DNA of 64,000 nucleotides from an uncultured Rhodobacteraceae bacterium (GTDB lineage Bacteria; Pseudomonadota; Alphaproteobacteria; Rhodobacterales; Rhodobacteraceae). Where the stretch lies: the NCBI GenBank assembly GCA_937922155.1, contig CAKZVL010000049.1, positions 9,004-73,003 of the forward strand, given 5' to 3'. A program made the position numbers and the translations under genes. The notes below the pieces were generated by a model. The model made no database searches, was not told the origin of the DNA, and saw only the letters and a list, made by a program, of their open reading frames with translations. Positions 4,676 to 49,408 of this stretch are shown here, piece by piece. Position 1 is the first letter of the stretch, and each line of letters opens with the position of its first letter.

Positions 4676-6043
4676 ATGAACCCCCATGAACCCAACAGCT
4701 GGGAAGCCCGCGCAGATGCGCATTCCTTTTACGGTTTCACCGATCTTCCCACGATAAATGACCGCGGCACCATCGTTTTGACCCACGGCAAAGGGCCTTA
4801 CGTCTATGACGTGCATGGCCGCCAATATCTGGATGGAAATTCCGGCCTTTGGAACATGTTTGCAGGCTTTGACCACAAAGGATTGGCTGAGGCCGCAAAA
4901 GCGCAATACGACCGTTTTCCCGGCTATCACGCATTTTTCGGGCGGATGTCAGACCAAACCGTGATGCTGTCGGAAAAACTGGTTGAGGTCTCCCCCTTCG
5001 AGAGGGGGAAAGTCTTCTACACCAACTCCGGATCAGAAGCGAATGACACGATGGTCAAAATGCTCTGGTTCCTCGCCGGCAACGAAGGAAAACCCGCGCG
5101 GCGCAAAATCCTGACCCGCGTCAATGGCTATCACGGGGTGACAGCCGTCAGCGCCTCAATGACGGGCAAGCCTTATAATTCTGTATTTGGCCTGCCGTTG
5201 GACGGCTTTATCCACCTGACCTGCCCACACTATTGGCGCTACGGCACAGATGGCGAGACAGAGGCGGAGTTCACCGCCCGCCTCGCCCAAGAGCTGGAAG
5301 ACACGATCGCAAGCGAAGGGGCCGACACAATAGCTGGCTTTTTTGCCGAACCCGTGATGGGCGCAGGGGGCGTTATCCCCCCGTCTGCGGGGTATTTCGC
5401 CGCCATCCAACCGATCCTGAAAAAACATGGGATCCCCCTCATCGCGGATGAGGTGATCACAGGCTTTGGCCGCACGGGTGAGGTTTGGGGCTGTCAAACC
5501 TATGACTTTATGCCCGACGCAATCATCTCCTCCAAAAACCTCACTGGCGGGTATTTCCCCATGGGCGCGGTCATTCTGGGCCCTGACCTGACCGACCGGA
5601 TGCAAGCCGCCGCCGACGCGATCGAAGAATTCCCACATGGGTTCACTGCGTCCGGCCACCCTGTTGGCTGCGCTGTGGCGCTCAAGGCGATTGATGTGGC
5701 CATGAACGAAGGCCTGATCGAAAATGTGAAAGCCCTGACCCCATTGTTCGAAGAAGGCCTCGCCCGATTGTCGCAAAAAGCCAACATCGGCGAATGGCGC
5801 GGCAAAGGGTTGATGGGCGCGCTAGAGGCGGTGCAGGACAAAGACACCAAACAACCCTTTGATGCATCCCTGTCGGTCAGCGAACGCATTGCCAACGCCT
5901 GCACCGATCAAGGGCTGATCTGCCGCCCGCTGGGACAAGCCATCGTGCTATGTCCTGCGTTCATCCTGACGCCCCTCCAGATGGAGGAGATGTTTGATAA
6001 GTTAGAAACCGCGATTGATGGCGTGTTCGCTGAAGTTGGATAG
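4676..6043 (+). CDS. Class III (omega) aminotransferase, polyamine/beta-alanine:pyruvate transaminase (SpuC)-like
   Basis: 455 aa with the ADEVITGFGRTG motif and typical class III length and architecture. Confidence 0.85.
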   Translation: MNPHEPNSWEARADAHSFYGFTDLPTINDRGTIVLTHGKGPYVYDVHGRQYLDGNSGLWNMFAGFDHKGLAEAAKAQYDRFPGYHAFFGRMSDQTVMLSEKLVEVSPFERGKVFYTNSGSEANDTMVKMLWFLAGNEGKPARRKILTRVNGYHGVTAVSASMTGKPYNSVFGLPLDGFIHLTCPHYWRYGTDGETEAEFTARLAQELEDTIASEGADTIAGFFAEPVMGAGGVIPPSAGYFAAIQPILKKHGIPLIADEVITGFGRTGEVWGCQTYDFMPDAIISSKNLTGGYFPMGAVILGPDLTDRMQAAADAIEEFPHGFTASGHPVGCAVALKAIDVAMNEGLIENVKALTPLFEEGLARLSQKANIGEWRGKGLMGALEAVQDKDTKQPFDASLSVSERIANACTDQGLICRPLGQAIVLCPAFILTPLQMEEMFDKLETAIDGVFAEVG

Positions 6044-10710: not shown

Positions 10711-11015
10711 GCGCAGCCTGCCCAAGGCTGAGGCGAACAGGTCGCACTTTACAGTTGAATACAGGTTTTGCCGTGCCAAGCTGGTCACCGGTTCGCGCAC
10801 AACACCGCCAAATTCCGCACCGCATCGCGACTCAATCCTAAAGAGTGGCCGAGCCCCAAACACACGCCTTTCCAGAAATGACGGGCTATCGGGACTCCAA
10901 CCCCCTGATTTCTTGAGATTCTAAACACTTTCTGAACGGCCTTGACTGTGGCACTATGGCAACTGTTAGACGGTATTCTGTTATTTTTTTGAACGTATTT
11001 TTGTGGAGAAAACTA

Positions 11016-11513
11016 ATGAACTTAAAAAGCCTGCTCATCGCCAGCGTCTTTGTCGGCGCGTCCTCACTGGGGGCGTCTGCTGCGACCATTAATCCGGATG
11101 ACTTTATGTTCGATGGAAAAGTCACGAGCGGCAACTGTCCTTTTGGCGGAAGCACCTGCATCCTTTTACCGAACAATGGCACGGCTGAACTCACCTATAG
11201 CGGTGGTGTTTTTGACCTTGTTAGCTTCGAATATGCCCTGCAAGGTTCGGGTTCCGAGGTGACGGCAACATCCGACTTGGGCGATGTTTTTGTCAGCCAA
11301 CCGCTCCAAGGAAATAATCCAGACAACACGGCTATTGTTAACTGGACTGGGGTAACGACAATCAATTTCGAAAGCACTGGCAACGGCTCCGTGCGCATCG
11401 GTGTTATTGATGGTGTCGTACAGATGACAGCCGTACCGCTGCCAGCTGGCCTGCCGCTGATGCTCGTCGGACTTGGCGCACTTGGTATCGCCAAGCGTCG
11501 CAAGGCGTCCTAA
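11016..11513 (+). CDS. Secreted protein with a VPLPA-CTERM sorting tag
   Basis: Signal peptide MNLKSLLIASVFVGASSLGASA with GGAG upstream of the ATG at 11016. The C-terminus VPLPAGLPLMLVGLGALGIAKRRKAS has the motif, a TM helix and a basic tail. Confidence 0.75.
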   Translation: MNLKSLLIASVFVGASSLGASAATINPDDFMFDGKVTSGNCPFGGSTCILLPNNGTAELTYSGGVFDLVSFEYALQGSGSEVTATSDLGDVFVSQPLQGNNPDNTAIVNWTGVTTINFESTGNGSVRIGVIDGVVQMTAVPLPAGLPLMLVGLGALGIAKRRKAS

Positions 11514-11570: not shown

Positions 11571-11710
11571 GAATATCAGCGGCGAATCCCAACGCACCTT
11601 TTCTGGCGATTCTCCTAGGCGAACGCGAAATCGCCTAAAAAACATACGTTTACCAACCGTTAACCATGATCGCCCGCGCGCAGCCTTAACCAGGCGTTCT
11701 GCGTAGGCAC

Positions 11711-11750
11711 GGTGTACCGATTGTGTACGCAGTGTGTACCGGCTGTGACA
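11711..11750 (+). promoter_or_regulatory. Array of four direct heptamers at exact 11-bp phasing (GGTGTAC/TGTGTAC/TGTGTAC/TGTGACA)
   Basis: The heptamers start at 11711, 11722, 11733 and 11744. An AAAATA -10-like hexamer lies about 14 nt downstream. A homologous array occurs at 26055-26094. Confidence 0.6.
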
Positions 11751-11975
11751 CTGAATTTCCCAACAAAATAACGCGTAAACCCTTGCGTCTGACACCACAG
11801 CCAAAATGCCTGCATCCATCCAGCGCACGCACGCCCCACCCCATTAACAAAGCGCACGCGCAATCACAGGGTTTCACACACCCGTGCAACACGCGCCTGT
11901 GTCTTTCCTGTGATCGGCTCATGACGTTACGCAAGGGGACCACCAAAACCGGTGTGTTCTTTTACGGAGTTAAAC

Positions 11976-12779
11976 ATGTCCAACAGATCAAAAATCGCAG
12001 GCCTAATGGCCGCAACAACCATGCTGGTCGCGGGTGCGGCGAATGCTGCAACGCTGTCCGTCAGCATCACAAACGAACAACCTGCAGACGGGGTCTTTCT
12101 AACACCTCTGGCATCCATCTTCCACGATGGCAATTTCGACCTCTTCAACGCTGGCGAAACCGCCTCCCAAGTGGTTGAAGGCCTCGCCGAAGAAGGCGCC
12201 GCAGGCCCAGTTGTGGCAGCCGCCCAAGCGGCAGGTCATCAAGGTGGCGTTGTCTTTGGAACAGGCGGTTTTGGTTCCGCACCAGGTCAACCACCTCTGA
12301 TTGATCCAATGGAAACAGCCTCCGCCCTGTTCAACGTTGATTTCGGCGCGACGGACGATCTCTACTTCTCGTTCATGTCGATGATCCTACCAACAAACGA
12401 TGCATTCATCGGCAACGACAACCCAACCGCCTATCAAATCGTAGACAGCGGCATCTTCCAAGGCACGTCCATCAGCGTCTACACAAACGATGCATGGGAT
12501 GCCGGCACCGAGGAAAATAACTTCCAAGGCTTGCCCTTCAGCCCCAACGGCGGTGACGCAACCGACACCAACGGTGTGATCGCGCGCCTTGGCAACCTGC
12601 TGTTCGTCGACGGCCAAACACGCGGTGCCGAATTCGGCCCAGTTGGCCCTGCTGGCCTCGGCGATGCGACATTGATCGCAACCATCGAAGTTGCAGCCGT
12701 TCCGCTGCCAGCTGGCTTGCCGCTGATGCTCGCAGGACTTGGCGCATTTGGCATCGCTAAGCGCCGCAAAAAGGCATAA
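11976..12779 (+). CDS. Spondin_N-like secreted protein with a VPLPA-CTERM sorting tag
   Basis: Signal peptide ending AANA, then the SMILPTNDAFIGN region typical of bacterial spondin-N homologs. C-terminus is VPLPAGLPLMLAGLGAFGIAKRRKKA, and GGAG precedes the ATG at 11976. Confidence 0.75.
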   Translation: MSNRSKIAGLMAATTMLVAGAANAATLSVSITNEQPADGVFLTPLASIFHDGNFDLFNAGETASQVVEGLAEEGAAGPVVAAAQAAGHQGGVVFGTGGFGSAPGQPPLIDPMETASALFNVDFGATDDLYFSFMSMILPTNDAFIGNDNPTAYQIVDSGIFQGTSISVYTNDAWDAGTEENNFQGLPFSPNGGDATDTNGVIARLGNLLFVDGQTRGAEFGPVGPAGLGDATLIATIEVAAVPLPAGLPLMLAGLGAFGIAKRRKKA

Positions 12780-23223: not shown

Positions 23224-25914
<2,691 letters not shown>

Positions 25915-25940
25915 AACACGTTCCCAAATCGACCTGAAAA

Positions 25941-25965
25941 GGCCCGCCAACGCGCGGGCCTTTTT
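25941..25965 (+). terminator. Rho-independent terminator after acnA
   Basis: GGCCCGC-loop-GCGGGCC followed by TTTTT. Confidence 0.75.
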
Positions 25966-26054
25966 GCTGCGTTTAACCCAAAATTAGTCCATTCCTTAAA
26001 ATCAGGTTAACCGGGGCGCCGACCGCTGCGTTAATCCCCAATTTCGCCGATTTC

Positions 26055-26094
26055 CGTGTACCAACTGTGTACAGCTTGTGTACGGCCTGTGACT
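26055..26094 (+). promoter_or_regulatory. Second copy of the four-heptamer 11-bp phased array (CGTGTAC/TGTGTAC/TGTGTAC/TGTGACT)
   Basis: The heptamers start at 26055, 26066, 26077 and 26088. TATAAA lies 12 nt downstream. The array sits between the convergent genes acnA and ccmG. Confidence 0.6.
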
Positions 26095-26233
26095 CTCTCA
26101 AACCCCTATAAACAAGGGGCTTAACCCTGATACCCCAAAATCAAACACGAAACGTACACACAACCGTTGCGCACACGCCCTCGGCGCGCTGCACGCAACG
26201 GCATTTCACACATCTTTCATGTTATAAAAATCT

Positions 26234-26782
26234 CTAAGGCGCGCTTTTCGCACCCTCTAACATCGGCACAAACCGCTGCTCATAATCCGACCCAACCAGC
26301 GGCCCGATGAACCTGTTCAGAATGGTCCCATCCGCCCCAACGATAAACGTCTCCGGCGGCGCAGTGACGCCCCAGTCAATGGCAAACCCACCGCGCGGAT
26401 CAAAGCTGGTCGCGATAAACGGATTGCCATCCTCGCGCAGGTATTGCTCTGCATTGGCCTCAATATCGCGAAAGTTCGCACCAACGATCCTGTACCCCTG
26501 ATCCTCCAGCGACAACAACGTTGGATGCTCCGCCCGGCACGGCGGACACCAGCTGGCCCAGAAATTCACGATTGTAATCTCGCCCGCGTCAAACAACGCA
26601 GGATCAAACGCCTCTGTGCCCGGAACCGCCTGCGTCGGCAATCCCGGTGCCGCCTGACCAATCAGGGCCGAGGGCAGCTCGCCCGGATTGTCCCGCATCA
26701 TGCCCGCAAAAAACAACCCGGCCATGCCTGCAAACAGGATCGGTGGGATCAACAGCATTGGCGAAATCTTACCCATTTTCAA
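26234..26782 (-). CDS. ccmG: Thiol:disulfide oxidoreductase CcmG/DsbE (HelX)
   Basis: An N-terminal membrane anchor, the WASWCPPCRAEHP thioredoxin motif, and its position after ccmD. Confidence 0.85.
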   Translation of the reverse strand: MKMGKISPMLLIPPILFAGMAGLFFAGMMRDNPGELPSALIGQAAPGLPTQAVPGTEAFDPALFDAGEITIVNFWASWCPPCRAEHPTLLSLEDQGYRIVGANFRDIEANAEQYLREDGNPFIATSFDPRGGFAIDWGVTAPPETFIVGADGTILNRFIGPLVGSDYEQRFVPMLEGAKSAP

Positions 26783-48002: not shown

Positions 48003-48560
48003 ATGTCAGATTTCACAAAATCGGTCTGCGTCTACTGCGGATCCCGTGATGGGGTTAGTCCCGCTTATGCAAATGCCGCCGAAGATCTTGGCGCGCTTTT
48101 GGTAAAATCACAATGGCGTTTGGTCTATGGCGCGGGCGACGTTGGATTGATGGGGCGCGTTGCGCGAACCGTGCAGGCTGCAGGTGGCGTCACCTTCGGC
48201 GTTATTCCCACCCATCTGTTAGATTGGGAGGTAGGCAAACGCGATCTGGACAGTTTTGTCATTACCGAAACCATGCATGAGCGTAAAAAGGTCATGTTGA
48301 TGAACGCAGATGCCGTCGTTGTTCTACCAGGTGGCGCCGGGAGCTTGGACGAATTTTTCGAAGCCCTGACCTGGCGCCAGCTTGGCCTGCATCAAAAGCC
48401 AATCGTTCTGCTGAACGTCGATGGCTACTGGGACCCGCTTTTGGCGATGATGAAACAGATCGTCGATCAGGGATTTGCCGATGATGACATATTGGCATTC
48501 GTGGATATTGTGCCCGACGCCAAGGGCGCGATTGCAGCTTTGGCCGCGCGTTTTGACTAG
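48003..48560 (+). CDS. LOG family protein (cytokinin riboside 5'-monophosphate phosphoribohydrolase-like, TIGR00730 type)
   Basis: It has the PGGAGSLDEFFE motif and is about 185 aa. Confidence 0.8.
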   Translation: MSDFTKSVCVYCGSRDGVSPAYANAAEDLGALLVKSQWRLVYGAGDVGLMGRVARTVQAAGGVTFGVIPTHLLDWEVGKRDLDSFVITETMHERKKVMLMNADAVVVLPGGAGSLDEFFEALTWRQLGLHQKPIVLLNVDGYWDPLLAMMKQIVDQGFADDDILAFVDIVPDAKGAIAALAARFD

Positions 48561-49333
48561 CTTATCCCGGATGCACGGCGTCTGCGGCGCGCACCAAGCA
48601 CCCCAAACGCGCCGATCACAGGCAGCATCAATGCCAGGCCTGCAGGAACCGGGACAGCCGCAATTTTGATATCCCCGGTCAGTTTGAGGTTGTCGAAGGC
48701 CAAATCCTCGTCATTTCCATTCAGATCAAAAAAGCTCACCTGAATATCCAAAAGCGATCCATCGGCCAGCGAGGCCGCAAATTCGCTAAAGGCATTCGTG
48801 ATTTCTGCACCATCCCCGACGCCATCAAAATCGGTATCAACGCGGGCGCGTTCATTGGTTTGATTGCCATCCACGCCCAGTTCAGATCGAATAGAAAAAA
48901 CAGAATTGTACCCAGCCCCGTCGATCTGTGCGTCAATCTGGAAATTGGTTGTTGCATCCCAATCTTCGAATCCGTTGGTGGCGTCAGACTCCGCCACGAA
49001 CCATGTCAGATTCAGGTTGGTGTGATCTGAAATATCGACGCCCACCCAGTCCAGCACAATTGTCCCACTCGCGGCCCCAGAAACGCTGTCGCTATCTTGG
49101 ACCGTATAAAATTTGATGCCTTGCGTGCTGAGATACGTGACATCGCTGGGCAAGTCCGTACTGCCAGCCCGCCCAAAATAATCACCGTCAGCCACCGCTG
49201 TAAAGTTATCGGGAACATTGGACGTGTATGTCAGCACCGCATCTTCAAAATCCTCAAGCAGCAGCGTGGCCGCTTGAGATGTGCCGACCGAAGCAATGAA
49301 CAAAAGTGTCGATGCAAAAAAAATGTTTTTCAT
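48557..49333 (-). CDS. Secreted protein with a VPLPA-like (VPVPA) CTERM sorting tag
   Basis: Signal peptide MKNIFFASTLLFIASVGTSQA. C-terminus is AAVPVPAGLALMLPVIGAFGVLGARRRRRASGIS. Confidence 0.7.
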   Translation of the reverse strand: MKNIFFASTLLFIASVGTSQAATLLLEDFEDAVLTYTSNVPDNFTAVADGDYFGRAGSTDLPSDVTYLSTQGIKFYTVQDSDSVSGAASGTIVLDWVGVDISDHTNLNLTWFVAESDATNGFEDWDATTNFQIDAQIDGAGYNSVFSIRSELGVDGNQTNERARVDTDFDGVGDGAEITNAFSEFAASLADGSLLDIQVSFFDLNGNDEDLAFDNLKLTGDIKIAAVPVPAGLALMLPVIGAFGVLGARRRRRASGIS

Positions 49334-49378
49334 AAAGTCGCCCTCACGTGATCATTGATCAACCGTAGCGGGGGCTGG

Positions 49379-49393
49379 TTAACATCGCGTTAA
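49379..49393. promoter_or_regulatory. CtrA-box-like TTAA-N7-TTAA
   Basis: TTAACATCGCGTTAA lies 46-60 nt upstream of the start of the VPVPA-tagged gene (49333, minus strand). Confidence 0.35.
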
Positions 49394-49408
49394 CCAGGCT
49401 TGATAACT

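Follow-up and report, generated by a model that had tools for sequence, protein, structure and literature searches.

We analyzed a 64,000-nucleotide stretch of DNA from an uncultured Rhodobacteraceae bacterium (the window) and found, in the spacer between the convergent genes acnA and ccmG, an array of phased heptamers that, judging from alignments of related copies, is the core of a composite module of about 190-270 bp. On balance, we think that this element is a copy of a dispersed, Rhodobacterales-specific composite DNA module that would act at the level of the DNA, as a platform on which proteins dock, and that it is not a gene for a small RNA (sRNA). A preliminary description of the spacer had called the array an orphan and had suggested that it starts an sRNA or cis-antisense RNA, or is a regulated promoter.

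The array is on the plus strand at 26055-26094 and reads CGTGTAC-caac-TGTGTAC-agct-TGTGTAC-ggcc-TGTGACT. The starts given earlier for the four units (26055, 26066, 26077, and 26088) are exact. The flanking genes are acnA (23224-25914, plus strand; Pfam Aconitase and Aconitase_C; an identical 896-amino-acid product is on record) and ccmG (26234-26770, minus strand; Redoxin/thioredoxin-like, with homologues named CcmG/DsbE), and the gene calls and Pfam domains bear out the convergent pair of the preliminary description. Its acnA terminator was found as a perfect hairpin with 11-nt arms (25937-25964), and TATAAA (26107-26112, 12 nt past the last heptamer) and TTAA-N7-TTAG (25973-25987) are present. 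There was no credible coding sequence downstream on the plus strand, as had been noted; the ccm operon is on the minus strand, in relatives likewise. Several motifs had been missed: a perfect CtrA-type TTAA-N7-TTAA at 25996-26010 (with GTTAAC at 26006), GTTAAT at 26030-26035, TTAACC at 26121-26126, and an inverted heptamer, GTACACA, at 26154-26160.

The closest relative that we found is an ENA metagenome contig (L122) with a CcmG that is 88.6% identical, the same convergent gene pair, and the module in the spacer. The parts of the module in the window, with their conservation in L122 and in the eight long modules described below, are:

25937 to 25965, plus strand: acnA intrinsic terminator, the left boundary, with arms at 25937-25947 and 25954-25964 and then a T-run; 93% identical in L122, with the differences confined to the loop.
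25966 to 25993, plus strand: partial duplicate of the GCTGCGTTAA block, containing TTAA-N7-TTAG; a direct repeat (D1) that is 75% identical to 26025-26052 and only 23% conserved in L122.
25996 to 26011, unstranded: CtrA-type full site TTAA-N7-TTAAC (TTAAA-N5-GTTAAC), read directly from the sequence; L122 has kept both TTAA half-sites and changed the N7 spacer.
26025 to 26042, unstranded: block CGCTGCGTTAATCCCCAA with the GTTAAT half-site, 20 bp upstream of the array; 83% identical in L122 and aligned in 8 of 8 long modules.
26055 to 26094, plus strand: array of four heptamers with an 11-bp period (CGTGTAC, TGTGTAC, TGTGTAC, TGTGACT).
26103 to 26131, unstranded: A-rich stretch and half-site block CCCCTATAAACAAGGGGCTTAACCCTGAT, with TATAAA and TTAACC; 81% identical in L122 and aligned in 8 of 8 long modules, in which AAA and TTAACC are invariant.
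26153 to 26172, unstranded: block CGTACACACAACCGTTGCGC, consisting of the inverted heptamer, whose region forms a perfect 8-nt inverted repeat with array unit 3, and AACCGTTGCGC with a -35-like TTGCGC (26167-26172).
26164 to 26201, unstranded: hairpin CCGTTGCG...CGCAACGG, terminator-like for ccmG when read on the minus strand; absent in L122.
26189 to 26194, plus strand: CTGCAC, at the place where gene-proximal paralogues have a -10-like CTACAC or TACATC (alignments A3 and A4).
26224 to 26256, minus strand: terminator-like hairpin and T-run at the 3' end of ccmG, the right boundary.

The plus-strand acnA terminator (25937-25965) was omitted by a consensus terminator scan; the repeat finder shows its arms.

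The motifs of the module were maintained while the DNA between them drifted, in the orthologous pair and among paralogous copies as well. We used the four-fold degenerate sites of ccmG as a neutral benchmark, and 41 of 80 of these (51%) were identical in L122. By comparison, 25 of the 26 heptamer positions were identical, in contrast to 6 of 12 positions in the 4-nt spacers of the array. The other blocks were similarly conserved (83% for the GTTAATC block, 81% for the ATAAACAA..TTAACC block, and 92% for CGTACACACAACCGTTGCGC), so that motif blocks were 81-100% identical and inter-block DNA only 15-28% (15% for 26173-26233). Motif blocks are thus above the neutral benchmark and inter-block DNA is below it, indicating that the motifs have been maintained and that the rest has been free to drift. 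The point made earlier, that a module persists where there is no coding sequence to drive, is real: it is non-random and under constraint relative to L122.

The window contains a second copy of the module. The pattern TGTGTAC-N4-TGTGTAC, with up to two mismatches, matched four times, as two overlapping matches in each of two arrays, compared to 0.13 in shuffled sequences. The 38-nt pattern GTGTAC-N4-TGTGTAC-N4-TGTGTAC-N4-TGTGAC occurred exactly twice (11712-11749 and 26056-26093) and was not found in 100 shuffles even with three mismatches allowed. A relaxed scan of the 64 kb for a weaker or degenerate third array found none. We refer to the acnA-ccmG module as copy B (WIN-B) and to the other as copy A:

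11634 to 11912, plus strand: copy A, the paralogous module, with TTTA-N7-TTAA and GTTAACCAT at 11649-11667, TTAACC at 11686, and the array at 11711-11750.

The likeness of the two copies extends beyond the heptamers, over about 280 bp at 71% column identity, which the preliminary description had missed. Copy A is upstream of a Spondin_N / VPLPA-CTERM gene at 11976-12779. The tetramer GTAC is mildly rare in the window as a whole (46 observed versus 66.6 expected from a second-order model), and 7 of the 46 sites fall inside the two modules.

Arrays of this type are widespread in Rhodobacterales. We scanned one genome per species (GTDB) with the pattern GTGTAC-N4-TGTGTAC-N4-TGTGTAC, for which about one chance match is expected, and obtained at least 117 stretches. 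Among the matches listed, at least about 100 were from Rhodobacterales and 17 were plain tandem repeats from unrelated phyla. The carriers include Roseicyclus, Roseovarius, Rhodophyticola, Planktomarina, Litoreibacter, Paracoccus, Yoonia, Roseobacter sp. CCS2, Octadecabacter, Marivivens, and many metagenome-assembled genomes, and a single genome can have many perfect arrays (14 in IMCC 34051 and 15 in one Paracoccaceae metagenome-assembled genome). The arrays have three to six TGTGTAC-type heptamers with a strict 11-bp period. In a family profile anchored on the array, information content was found only in the unit, T-GTGTAC-R-G-N-T, and there was no fixed-position signal in the flanks. Certain genes have an adjoining array in more than one genus: lpdA (L059, L082, and L112), arfB (L029, L046, and L085), fumC (L031 and L032), rlmJ (L123, L126, and L128), and the gene for chorismate mutase.

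The flanks of the arrays are enriched in CtrA-type motifs that are in phase with the heptamers. TTAA was concentrated at -25, -36, -47, and -58 upstream and at +42, +55, and +66 downstream, and the distance between flanking TTAAs was quantised in whole 11-bp units (72, 81-82, 90-92, and 100-104 bp, with 12 of 25 cases at 90-92). GTTAAC was 11- to 20-fold enriched beside arrays, occurring upstream of 25 of 106 (1.2 expected) and downstream of 19 of 106 (1.7 expected). It has an extended form, (A)AAGGTTAACG(C), on both sides, and the downstream half-site has the consensus CAAAGGTTAACGC. A full TTAA-N7-TTAA(C) box was present in WIN-B, L122, L125, L031, and L032 (twice in the last). The CtrA motif of Dinoroseobacter shibae is TTAAC-N5-GTTAAC (PMC7232146), and CtrA half-sites are reported to be functional (PMC7232146, PMC6363796) and to matter in Rhodobacter capsulatus. 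By motif match, the site at 25996-26011 and the half-sites at 26030 and 26121 fit the published motif (PMC7232146).

A group of eight "long" modules, from at least six different loci, has the same order of blocks as copy B. We obtained these from a metagenome scan with a copy-B-specific pattern and from genome loci (alignment A3). They begin with a CtrA-type box, CGCTGCGTTAAYC, three to five GTG(T/C)AC units, and TGTG(A/C)N, and end with ATAAA(A)CAA-GGC-GTTAACCC, (T)GATTCGC, and (TT)AACCGTTGCGC. ACCGTTGCG was found in L045 and in L123-L128. Three of the modules (L123, L126, and L128) have CTACAC or TACATC 15-16 nt past the last block and, 8 nt farther on, the ATG of rlmJ; downstream of two others are lepA (L125) and lepB (L045). 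This layout indicates that such copies end in a sigma-70-like promoter, and its geometry at rlmJ would be that of a leaderless transcript. One module (L124/L127) is an orphan like the window copy, with the stop codon of a minus-strand gene inside the last TTAA.

The proposal of a regulated promoter was thus partly upheld: it fits the 3' end of the module in the rlmJ, lepA, and lepB paralogues, and not copy B, where a promoter scan found no -35/-10 pair. At 26189-26194, copy B has CTGCAC in place of the CTACAC of paralogues, with the key A of the -10 lost, and L122 has nothing -10-like there. From the alignment, CTGCAC is apparently a disabled -10. We also considered the array as a -35/-10, or TTAAC as a promoter hexamer, and rejected both since there was no consistent partner hexamer.

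It is improbable that copy B directs synthesis of an sRNA as had been proposed, with the array replacing a -35, TATAAA serving as the -10, and plus-strand transcription from about 26115-26120 yielding an RNA of about 100 nt, either an sRNA or a cis-antisense RNA (or, as a variant, an antisense RNA starting at about 26200 from TTGCGC at 26167-26172). Consistent with such a transcript, the module is between two terminators and therefore insulated from its neighbors' read-through, and an A-rich hexamer (TATAAA, TAAAAC, or TAAAAA) is 12-13 bp past the last unit in all of the long modules, a geometry like that of Pho boxes. Further, 26113-26232 folds better than shuffled sequences (z = -3.4), driven by the hairpin at 26164-26201 and followed by a U-rich stretch. 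However, this hairpin is window-specific, and the equivalent of 26113-26232 in L122 has no stable fold (z = +1.29). The body of the RNA is 15% conserved, and RNAalifold over six modules gave no common structure or covariation (-0.58 kcal/mol, 3 pairs). The TATAAA, which reads AATAAA in L122, belongs to a TTAAC half-site as its A-rich 5' flank (ATAAA(A)CAA-GGC-GTTAACC); the AAAGGTTAAC flank, as part of AAAGG(C)GTTAAC, is also present at upstream half-sites. Searching the whole window against Rfam 15 at gathering thresholds gave no hits, and a search of 25900-26300 with a permissive E-value gave only sub-threshold matches, none nearing the gathering score and almost all of them overlapping or adjoining the acnA terminator (25900-26070). 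Finally, many members of the family are in convergent spacers of 63-117 bp, which have no room for a transcript. The results therefore lend no support to a structured, conserved sRNA at acnA-ccmG. We likewise rejected a riboswitch or structured leader in the module's 3' half, there being no consensus structure.

The position of copy B between convergent genes is typical of the family. Of the arrays, 78 could be classified by context, using spacers of at least 40 bp as background: 25 were in convergent, 7 in divergent, and 46 in co-directional spacers, compared to 62, 86, and 223 for all spacers in the same loci (chi-square p = 1.4e-4; odds ratio for convergent versus divergent 7.6, p = 4e-6). 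Arrays thus occur in every intergenic context, over-represented in convergent spacers and depleted in divergent ones, and what had seemed odd about an orphan copy is the most over-represented context of the family. More than half of the convergent array spacers (14 of 25) were 117 bp or less. Two were checked by hand: a 76-bp spacer that separates a Hint-like gene from an Lrp/AsnC gene (L023), and an 88-bp spacer wholly filled by TTAAC...TTAAT (L039). Relative to the upstream gene in co-directional spacers, arrays had no orientation bias (28 versus 18, p = 0.18), which argues against a role at the level of RNA or a rut-like role, and we rejected a rut-like (C-rich) strand on this basis.

The main rival explanation is that the module is a selfish or neutral repeat of the repetitive extragenic palindrome (REP), bacterial interspersed mosaic element (BIME), or miniature inverted-repeat transposable element (MITE) type. 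Such an element would spread to tolerated intergenic sites, chiefly the 3' ends of genes, and be kept uniform by its own mobilising protein or by gene conversion; copy B would then be an insertion with no function for the host. We regard this as a lesser but real possibility. Many copies per genome, an excess in convergent and deficit in divergent spacers, tandem arrays 101-102 bp apart in three loci, and lineage-specific flanks common to intragenomic copies are all expected of such a repeat. The presence of the module at acnA-ccmG in the window and L122 only, and its absence from two other relatives with that gene pair (L138 and L140, below), point the same way. On the other hand, by eye we recognised no terminal inverted repeats or target-site duplications; the Paracoccus copies are alike beyond their TTAAC motifs, though flanking GTTAAC could mimic a duplication. 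The core is a direct repeat with no conserved hairpin and no REP-like palindrome, arrays are at orthologous sites across genera (lpdA, arfB, fumC, and rlmJ), and conservation is specific to the motifs while the spacers drift.

Several observations weigh against the view that copy B is a platform for host proteins. The flanks of intragenomic copies are alike and peculiar to the lineage (TGTCACGACGGGAT in Litoreibacter; CGTACATACGYGTT in NORP23 and UBA3080), and the copies in Paracoccus albicereus are alike over about 285 bp. This is the pattern expected of copying or concerted evolution, as for REP elements, and conservation of the motifs could then be homogenisation and not host benefit. The excess in convergent and deficit in divergent spacers is the opposite of what a plain transcription-factor regulon would give (divergent and upstream positions), and the gene calls behind the placement statistics are from our own simple codon-usage gene caller. 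Constraint on copy B was measured against a single orthologue, L122. Assignment of the TTAAC sites to CtrA is a match to a motif, and a weak, unconserved antisense transcript from the spacer is possible.

The module was probably acquired at acnA-ccmG within one lineage, as its presence in the window and L122 and its absence from L138 and L140 indicate. L138 (CcmG 69% identical) has the same gene pair without the module, in a 572-bp spacer with a 153-amino-acid open reading frame, and L140 (CcmG 56% identical) has the pair without the module in an 85-bp spacer with one shared terminator. Both are distant, and their spacers cannot be aligned with the window. The gene order differs in L139, L118, and L121, and L118-L121, which were reached via CcmG identities of 73-80%, have a different gene order and no array.

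The neighborhood of ccmG varies among relatives. In L138, the open reading frame (4806-5267, no Pfam hit) occupies the place of the module. Some relatives (L139 and L121, compared to the window, L138, and L140) have the DUF1223-acnA segment flipped with respect to the ccm operon, and depending on lineage the spacer next to ccmG contains a LuxR/GerE gene, a DUF1801 and an Exo_endo_phos gene, the 153-amino-acid open reading frame, or nothing. From these comparisons, the spacer next to ccmG looks like a rearrangement hot spot.

Some lineages have distinctive forms of the array. In Paracoccus albicereus (L015, L063, L064, and L087), the array is in a repeat of about 285 bp with a hairpin (CCGCCGGAGGCATCCCGGCGG) and the inverted sequences GCGCAAC ... 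GTTGCGC close to either end, and a scaffold labelled plasmid carries three of the copies. The tandem pairs of arrays, in the same orientation, are at 550/651 in L020, 1121/1222 in L071, and 4006/4108 in L072 and belong to two high-GC Paracoccaceae genomes. BLASTN of the module against the PLSDB plasmids gave no match. Viral contigs with the array pattern were set aside as simple tandem repeats in unrelated contexts. One family of IMG/VR contigs (L130, L132, L135, L136, and L137) has three copies of TGTGTACCATT plus TGTGGGAC by a lysin-like gene with a terminator adjoining, and is probably an unrelated tandem repeat. A high-GC subfamily (e.g., L023, L037, L102, and L116) has a CcrM-type GANTC palindrome, CCGGATTCCGG, about 6 nt past the last unit. 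GANTC was found at +40 to +49 in 10 of 106 arrays (1.1 expected), in this one subfamily only; copy B has no GANTC and reads GATAC.

It is very unlikely that the arrays are low-affinity DnaA box clusters, or that they bind a protein such as GafA, which has a DnaA-like DNA-binding domain, and so titrate or position such a protein next to CtrA sites. The DnaA box consensus is TTWTNCACA, and box R2 of Escherichia coli is TTATACACA. The reverse complement of the unit, CYGTACACA, matches the six 3' bases of the consensus, a 9-mer plus 2 bp gives arrays in the same orientation with an 11-bp period, as in the low-affinity arrays of oriC, and arrays occur together with CtrA-type sites and, in one subfamily, with GANTC. 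In addition, GafA of Rhodobacter capsulatus has a domain like the DNA-binding domain of DnaA and works with CtrA (PMC6363796). However, the 5' TTW of the box is unmatched, and neither TTWTNCACA nor TNATNCACA (canonical and G-box-like anchors) was enriched within 200 bp of arrays. Clusters of DnaA boxes (oriC low-affinity arrays, datA, and the Bacillus subtilis DnaA box clusters) resemble the module in being scattered, intergenic, same-orientation 11-bp arrays, and each unit has TNCACA on the opposite strand. They differ in that the module has many more copies, no 5' half in its units, and no high-affinity anchor nearby.

The geometry of the array is closest to that of sites bound by OmpR/PhoB-type regulators. 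Pho boxes and the sites of ArcA and B. subtilis PhoP are examples of this head-to-tail geometry: E. coli pstS has four 7-bp repeats, ArcA has multi-repeat sites, and B. subtilis PhoP binds four TT(A/T/C)ACA repeats. As in these, the array has direct repeats of 6-7 bp with gaps of 4-5 bp and a strict 11-bp period, usually four units (two dimers) that start with TGT, and, in the long modules, an A-rich hexamer that follows the last unit by 12-13 bp. In contrast, the heptamer matches none of the regulator motifs that we checked, the arrays favor convergent spacers over positions upstream of genes, and copies number in the tens per genome. Placement is like that of OmpR/PhoB sites for some copies, which are upstream of promoters (rlmJ, lepA, and lepB); taken together, members of the family are in excess in convergent spacers. 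Among candidate binders, the Pho box is CTGTCAT, the LexA site is GTTC-N7-GTTC, and the PpsR/CrtJ site is TGT-N12-ACA; LexA was rejected from its motif and the sequence, and PpsR/CrtJ because the spacing in the array is N11. The published motifs of CenR (TGA-N8-TGA; PMC9275681) and ChvI (TTGC-N3-GCAA or GCC-N8-GCC; PMC9731502) differ from the heptamer, and both were rejected as binders of the array.

The flanks resemble CtrA sites elsewhere in Alphaproteobacteria: they fit the consensus (including 25996-26010), and L122 keeps the half-sites while the spacer changes. The genes known to be CtrA targets are those for motility, gene transfer agents, signalling, and the cell cycle, whereas the sites in the module are by housekeeping genes or between gene ends and always with a heptamer array. 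As a whole, the module resembles the REP and BIME elements of enterobacteria and the rhizobial intergenic mosaic elements (RIMEs) in being short, multi-copy, and strictly intergenic, at 3' ends and in convergent spacers, and in being a mosaic of several motifs with lineage-specific sequence; BIMEs contain binding sites for integration host factor and gyrase. It differs from these in that its core is an array of direct repeats and not a stem-loop palindrome and in that many copies are at orthologous sites across genera. Homologous modules before unrelated genes (rlmJ, lepA, lepB, and the VPLPA-CTERM gene), with a -35/-10 at one end, are also reminiscent of mobile promoters and promoter-carrying MITEs (e.g., Correia), with the differences that we recognised neither terminal inverted repeats nor target duplications and that many copies have no promoter end. 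The element fits known kinds (repetitive intergenic mosaic elements and arrays of response-regulator sites) and is a member of no named family. We found no published description of the heptamer, of such repeats in Rhodobacterales, or of the module in the literature that could be searched, coverage of which is incomplete, so that this is absence of evidence only.

From the motifs observed, how they are phased and distributed, and the constraint on them, we infer how a docking platform might work and which proteins might bind it. CtrA, or a protein with the same specificity, would occupy the TTAAC sites. A second protein would bind the phased heptamers cooperatively, head to tail, on one face of the helix, with OmpR/PhoB-type winged-helix geometry. 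Where a -35/-10 follows (rlmJ, lepA, and lepB), the complex would modulate the promoter. In convergent spacers, it would be an occupied site only, functioning in titration, architecture, or as a roadblock, with at most weak antisense transcription. Copy B would have been acquired in the lineage of the window and L122 and would have kept its binding motifs since, with a promoter end that has no usable -10.

Elsewhere in the window, a perfect GTTAAC-N5-GTTAAC (the full site of the Dinoroseobacter CtrA type) is at 49378-49394, about 45 bp 5' of the ATG of a minus-strand gene (48557-49333) for a secreted protein whose C-terminal sorting tail is of the form VPxPA...RRRR. Three proteins in the window have VPLPA-CTERM-like tails (10956-11513, 11976-12779, and 48557-49333), one with Spondin_N, and two of the three genes have upstream CtrA-type motifs (copy A and the site at 49378). 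These motifs hint that this class of proteins could be under CtrA control.

It is conceivable, though we think it doubtful, that the modules form a genome-wide system in Rhodobacterales, of which copy B would be a working member. A further protein would polymerise on the TGTGTAC arrays, with their 11-bp phasing, beside TTAAC sites occupied by CtrA and so couple the CtrA phosphorelay (quorum sensing and cell cycle) to chromosome architecture, titration of regulators, or control of 3' ends and convergent transcription at tens to hundreds of loci. Such a system would be most analogous to datA/DARS and to the BIMEs that bind gyrase.

For annotation of the window, an odd orphan promoter becomes one copy of a widespread element, and the speculative sRNA is dropped. 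The array with its GTTAAC flanks is easy to search for and can serve as a marker for annotating intergenic regions of Rhodobacterales and for designing chromatin immunoprecipitation or pull-down experiments. The Roseobacter group are major marine heterotrophs, in which the CtrA phosphorelay ties together quorum sensing, motility, gene transfer agents, and differentiation. If host proteins do occupy the module, the CtrA landscape of these bacteria would be larger, a new DNA-binding partner would be indicated, and the group would gain a family of repetitive intergenic elements for which we found no description.

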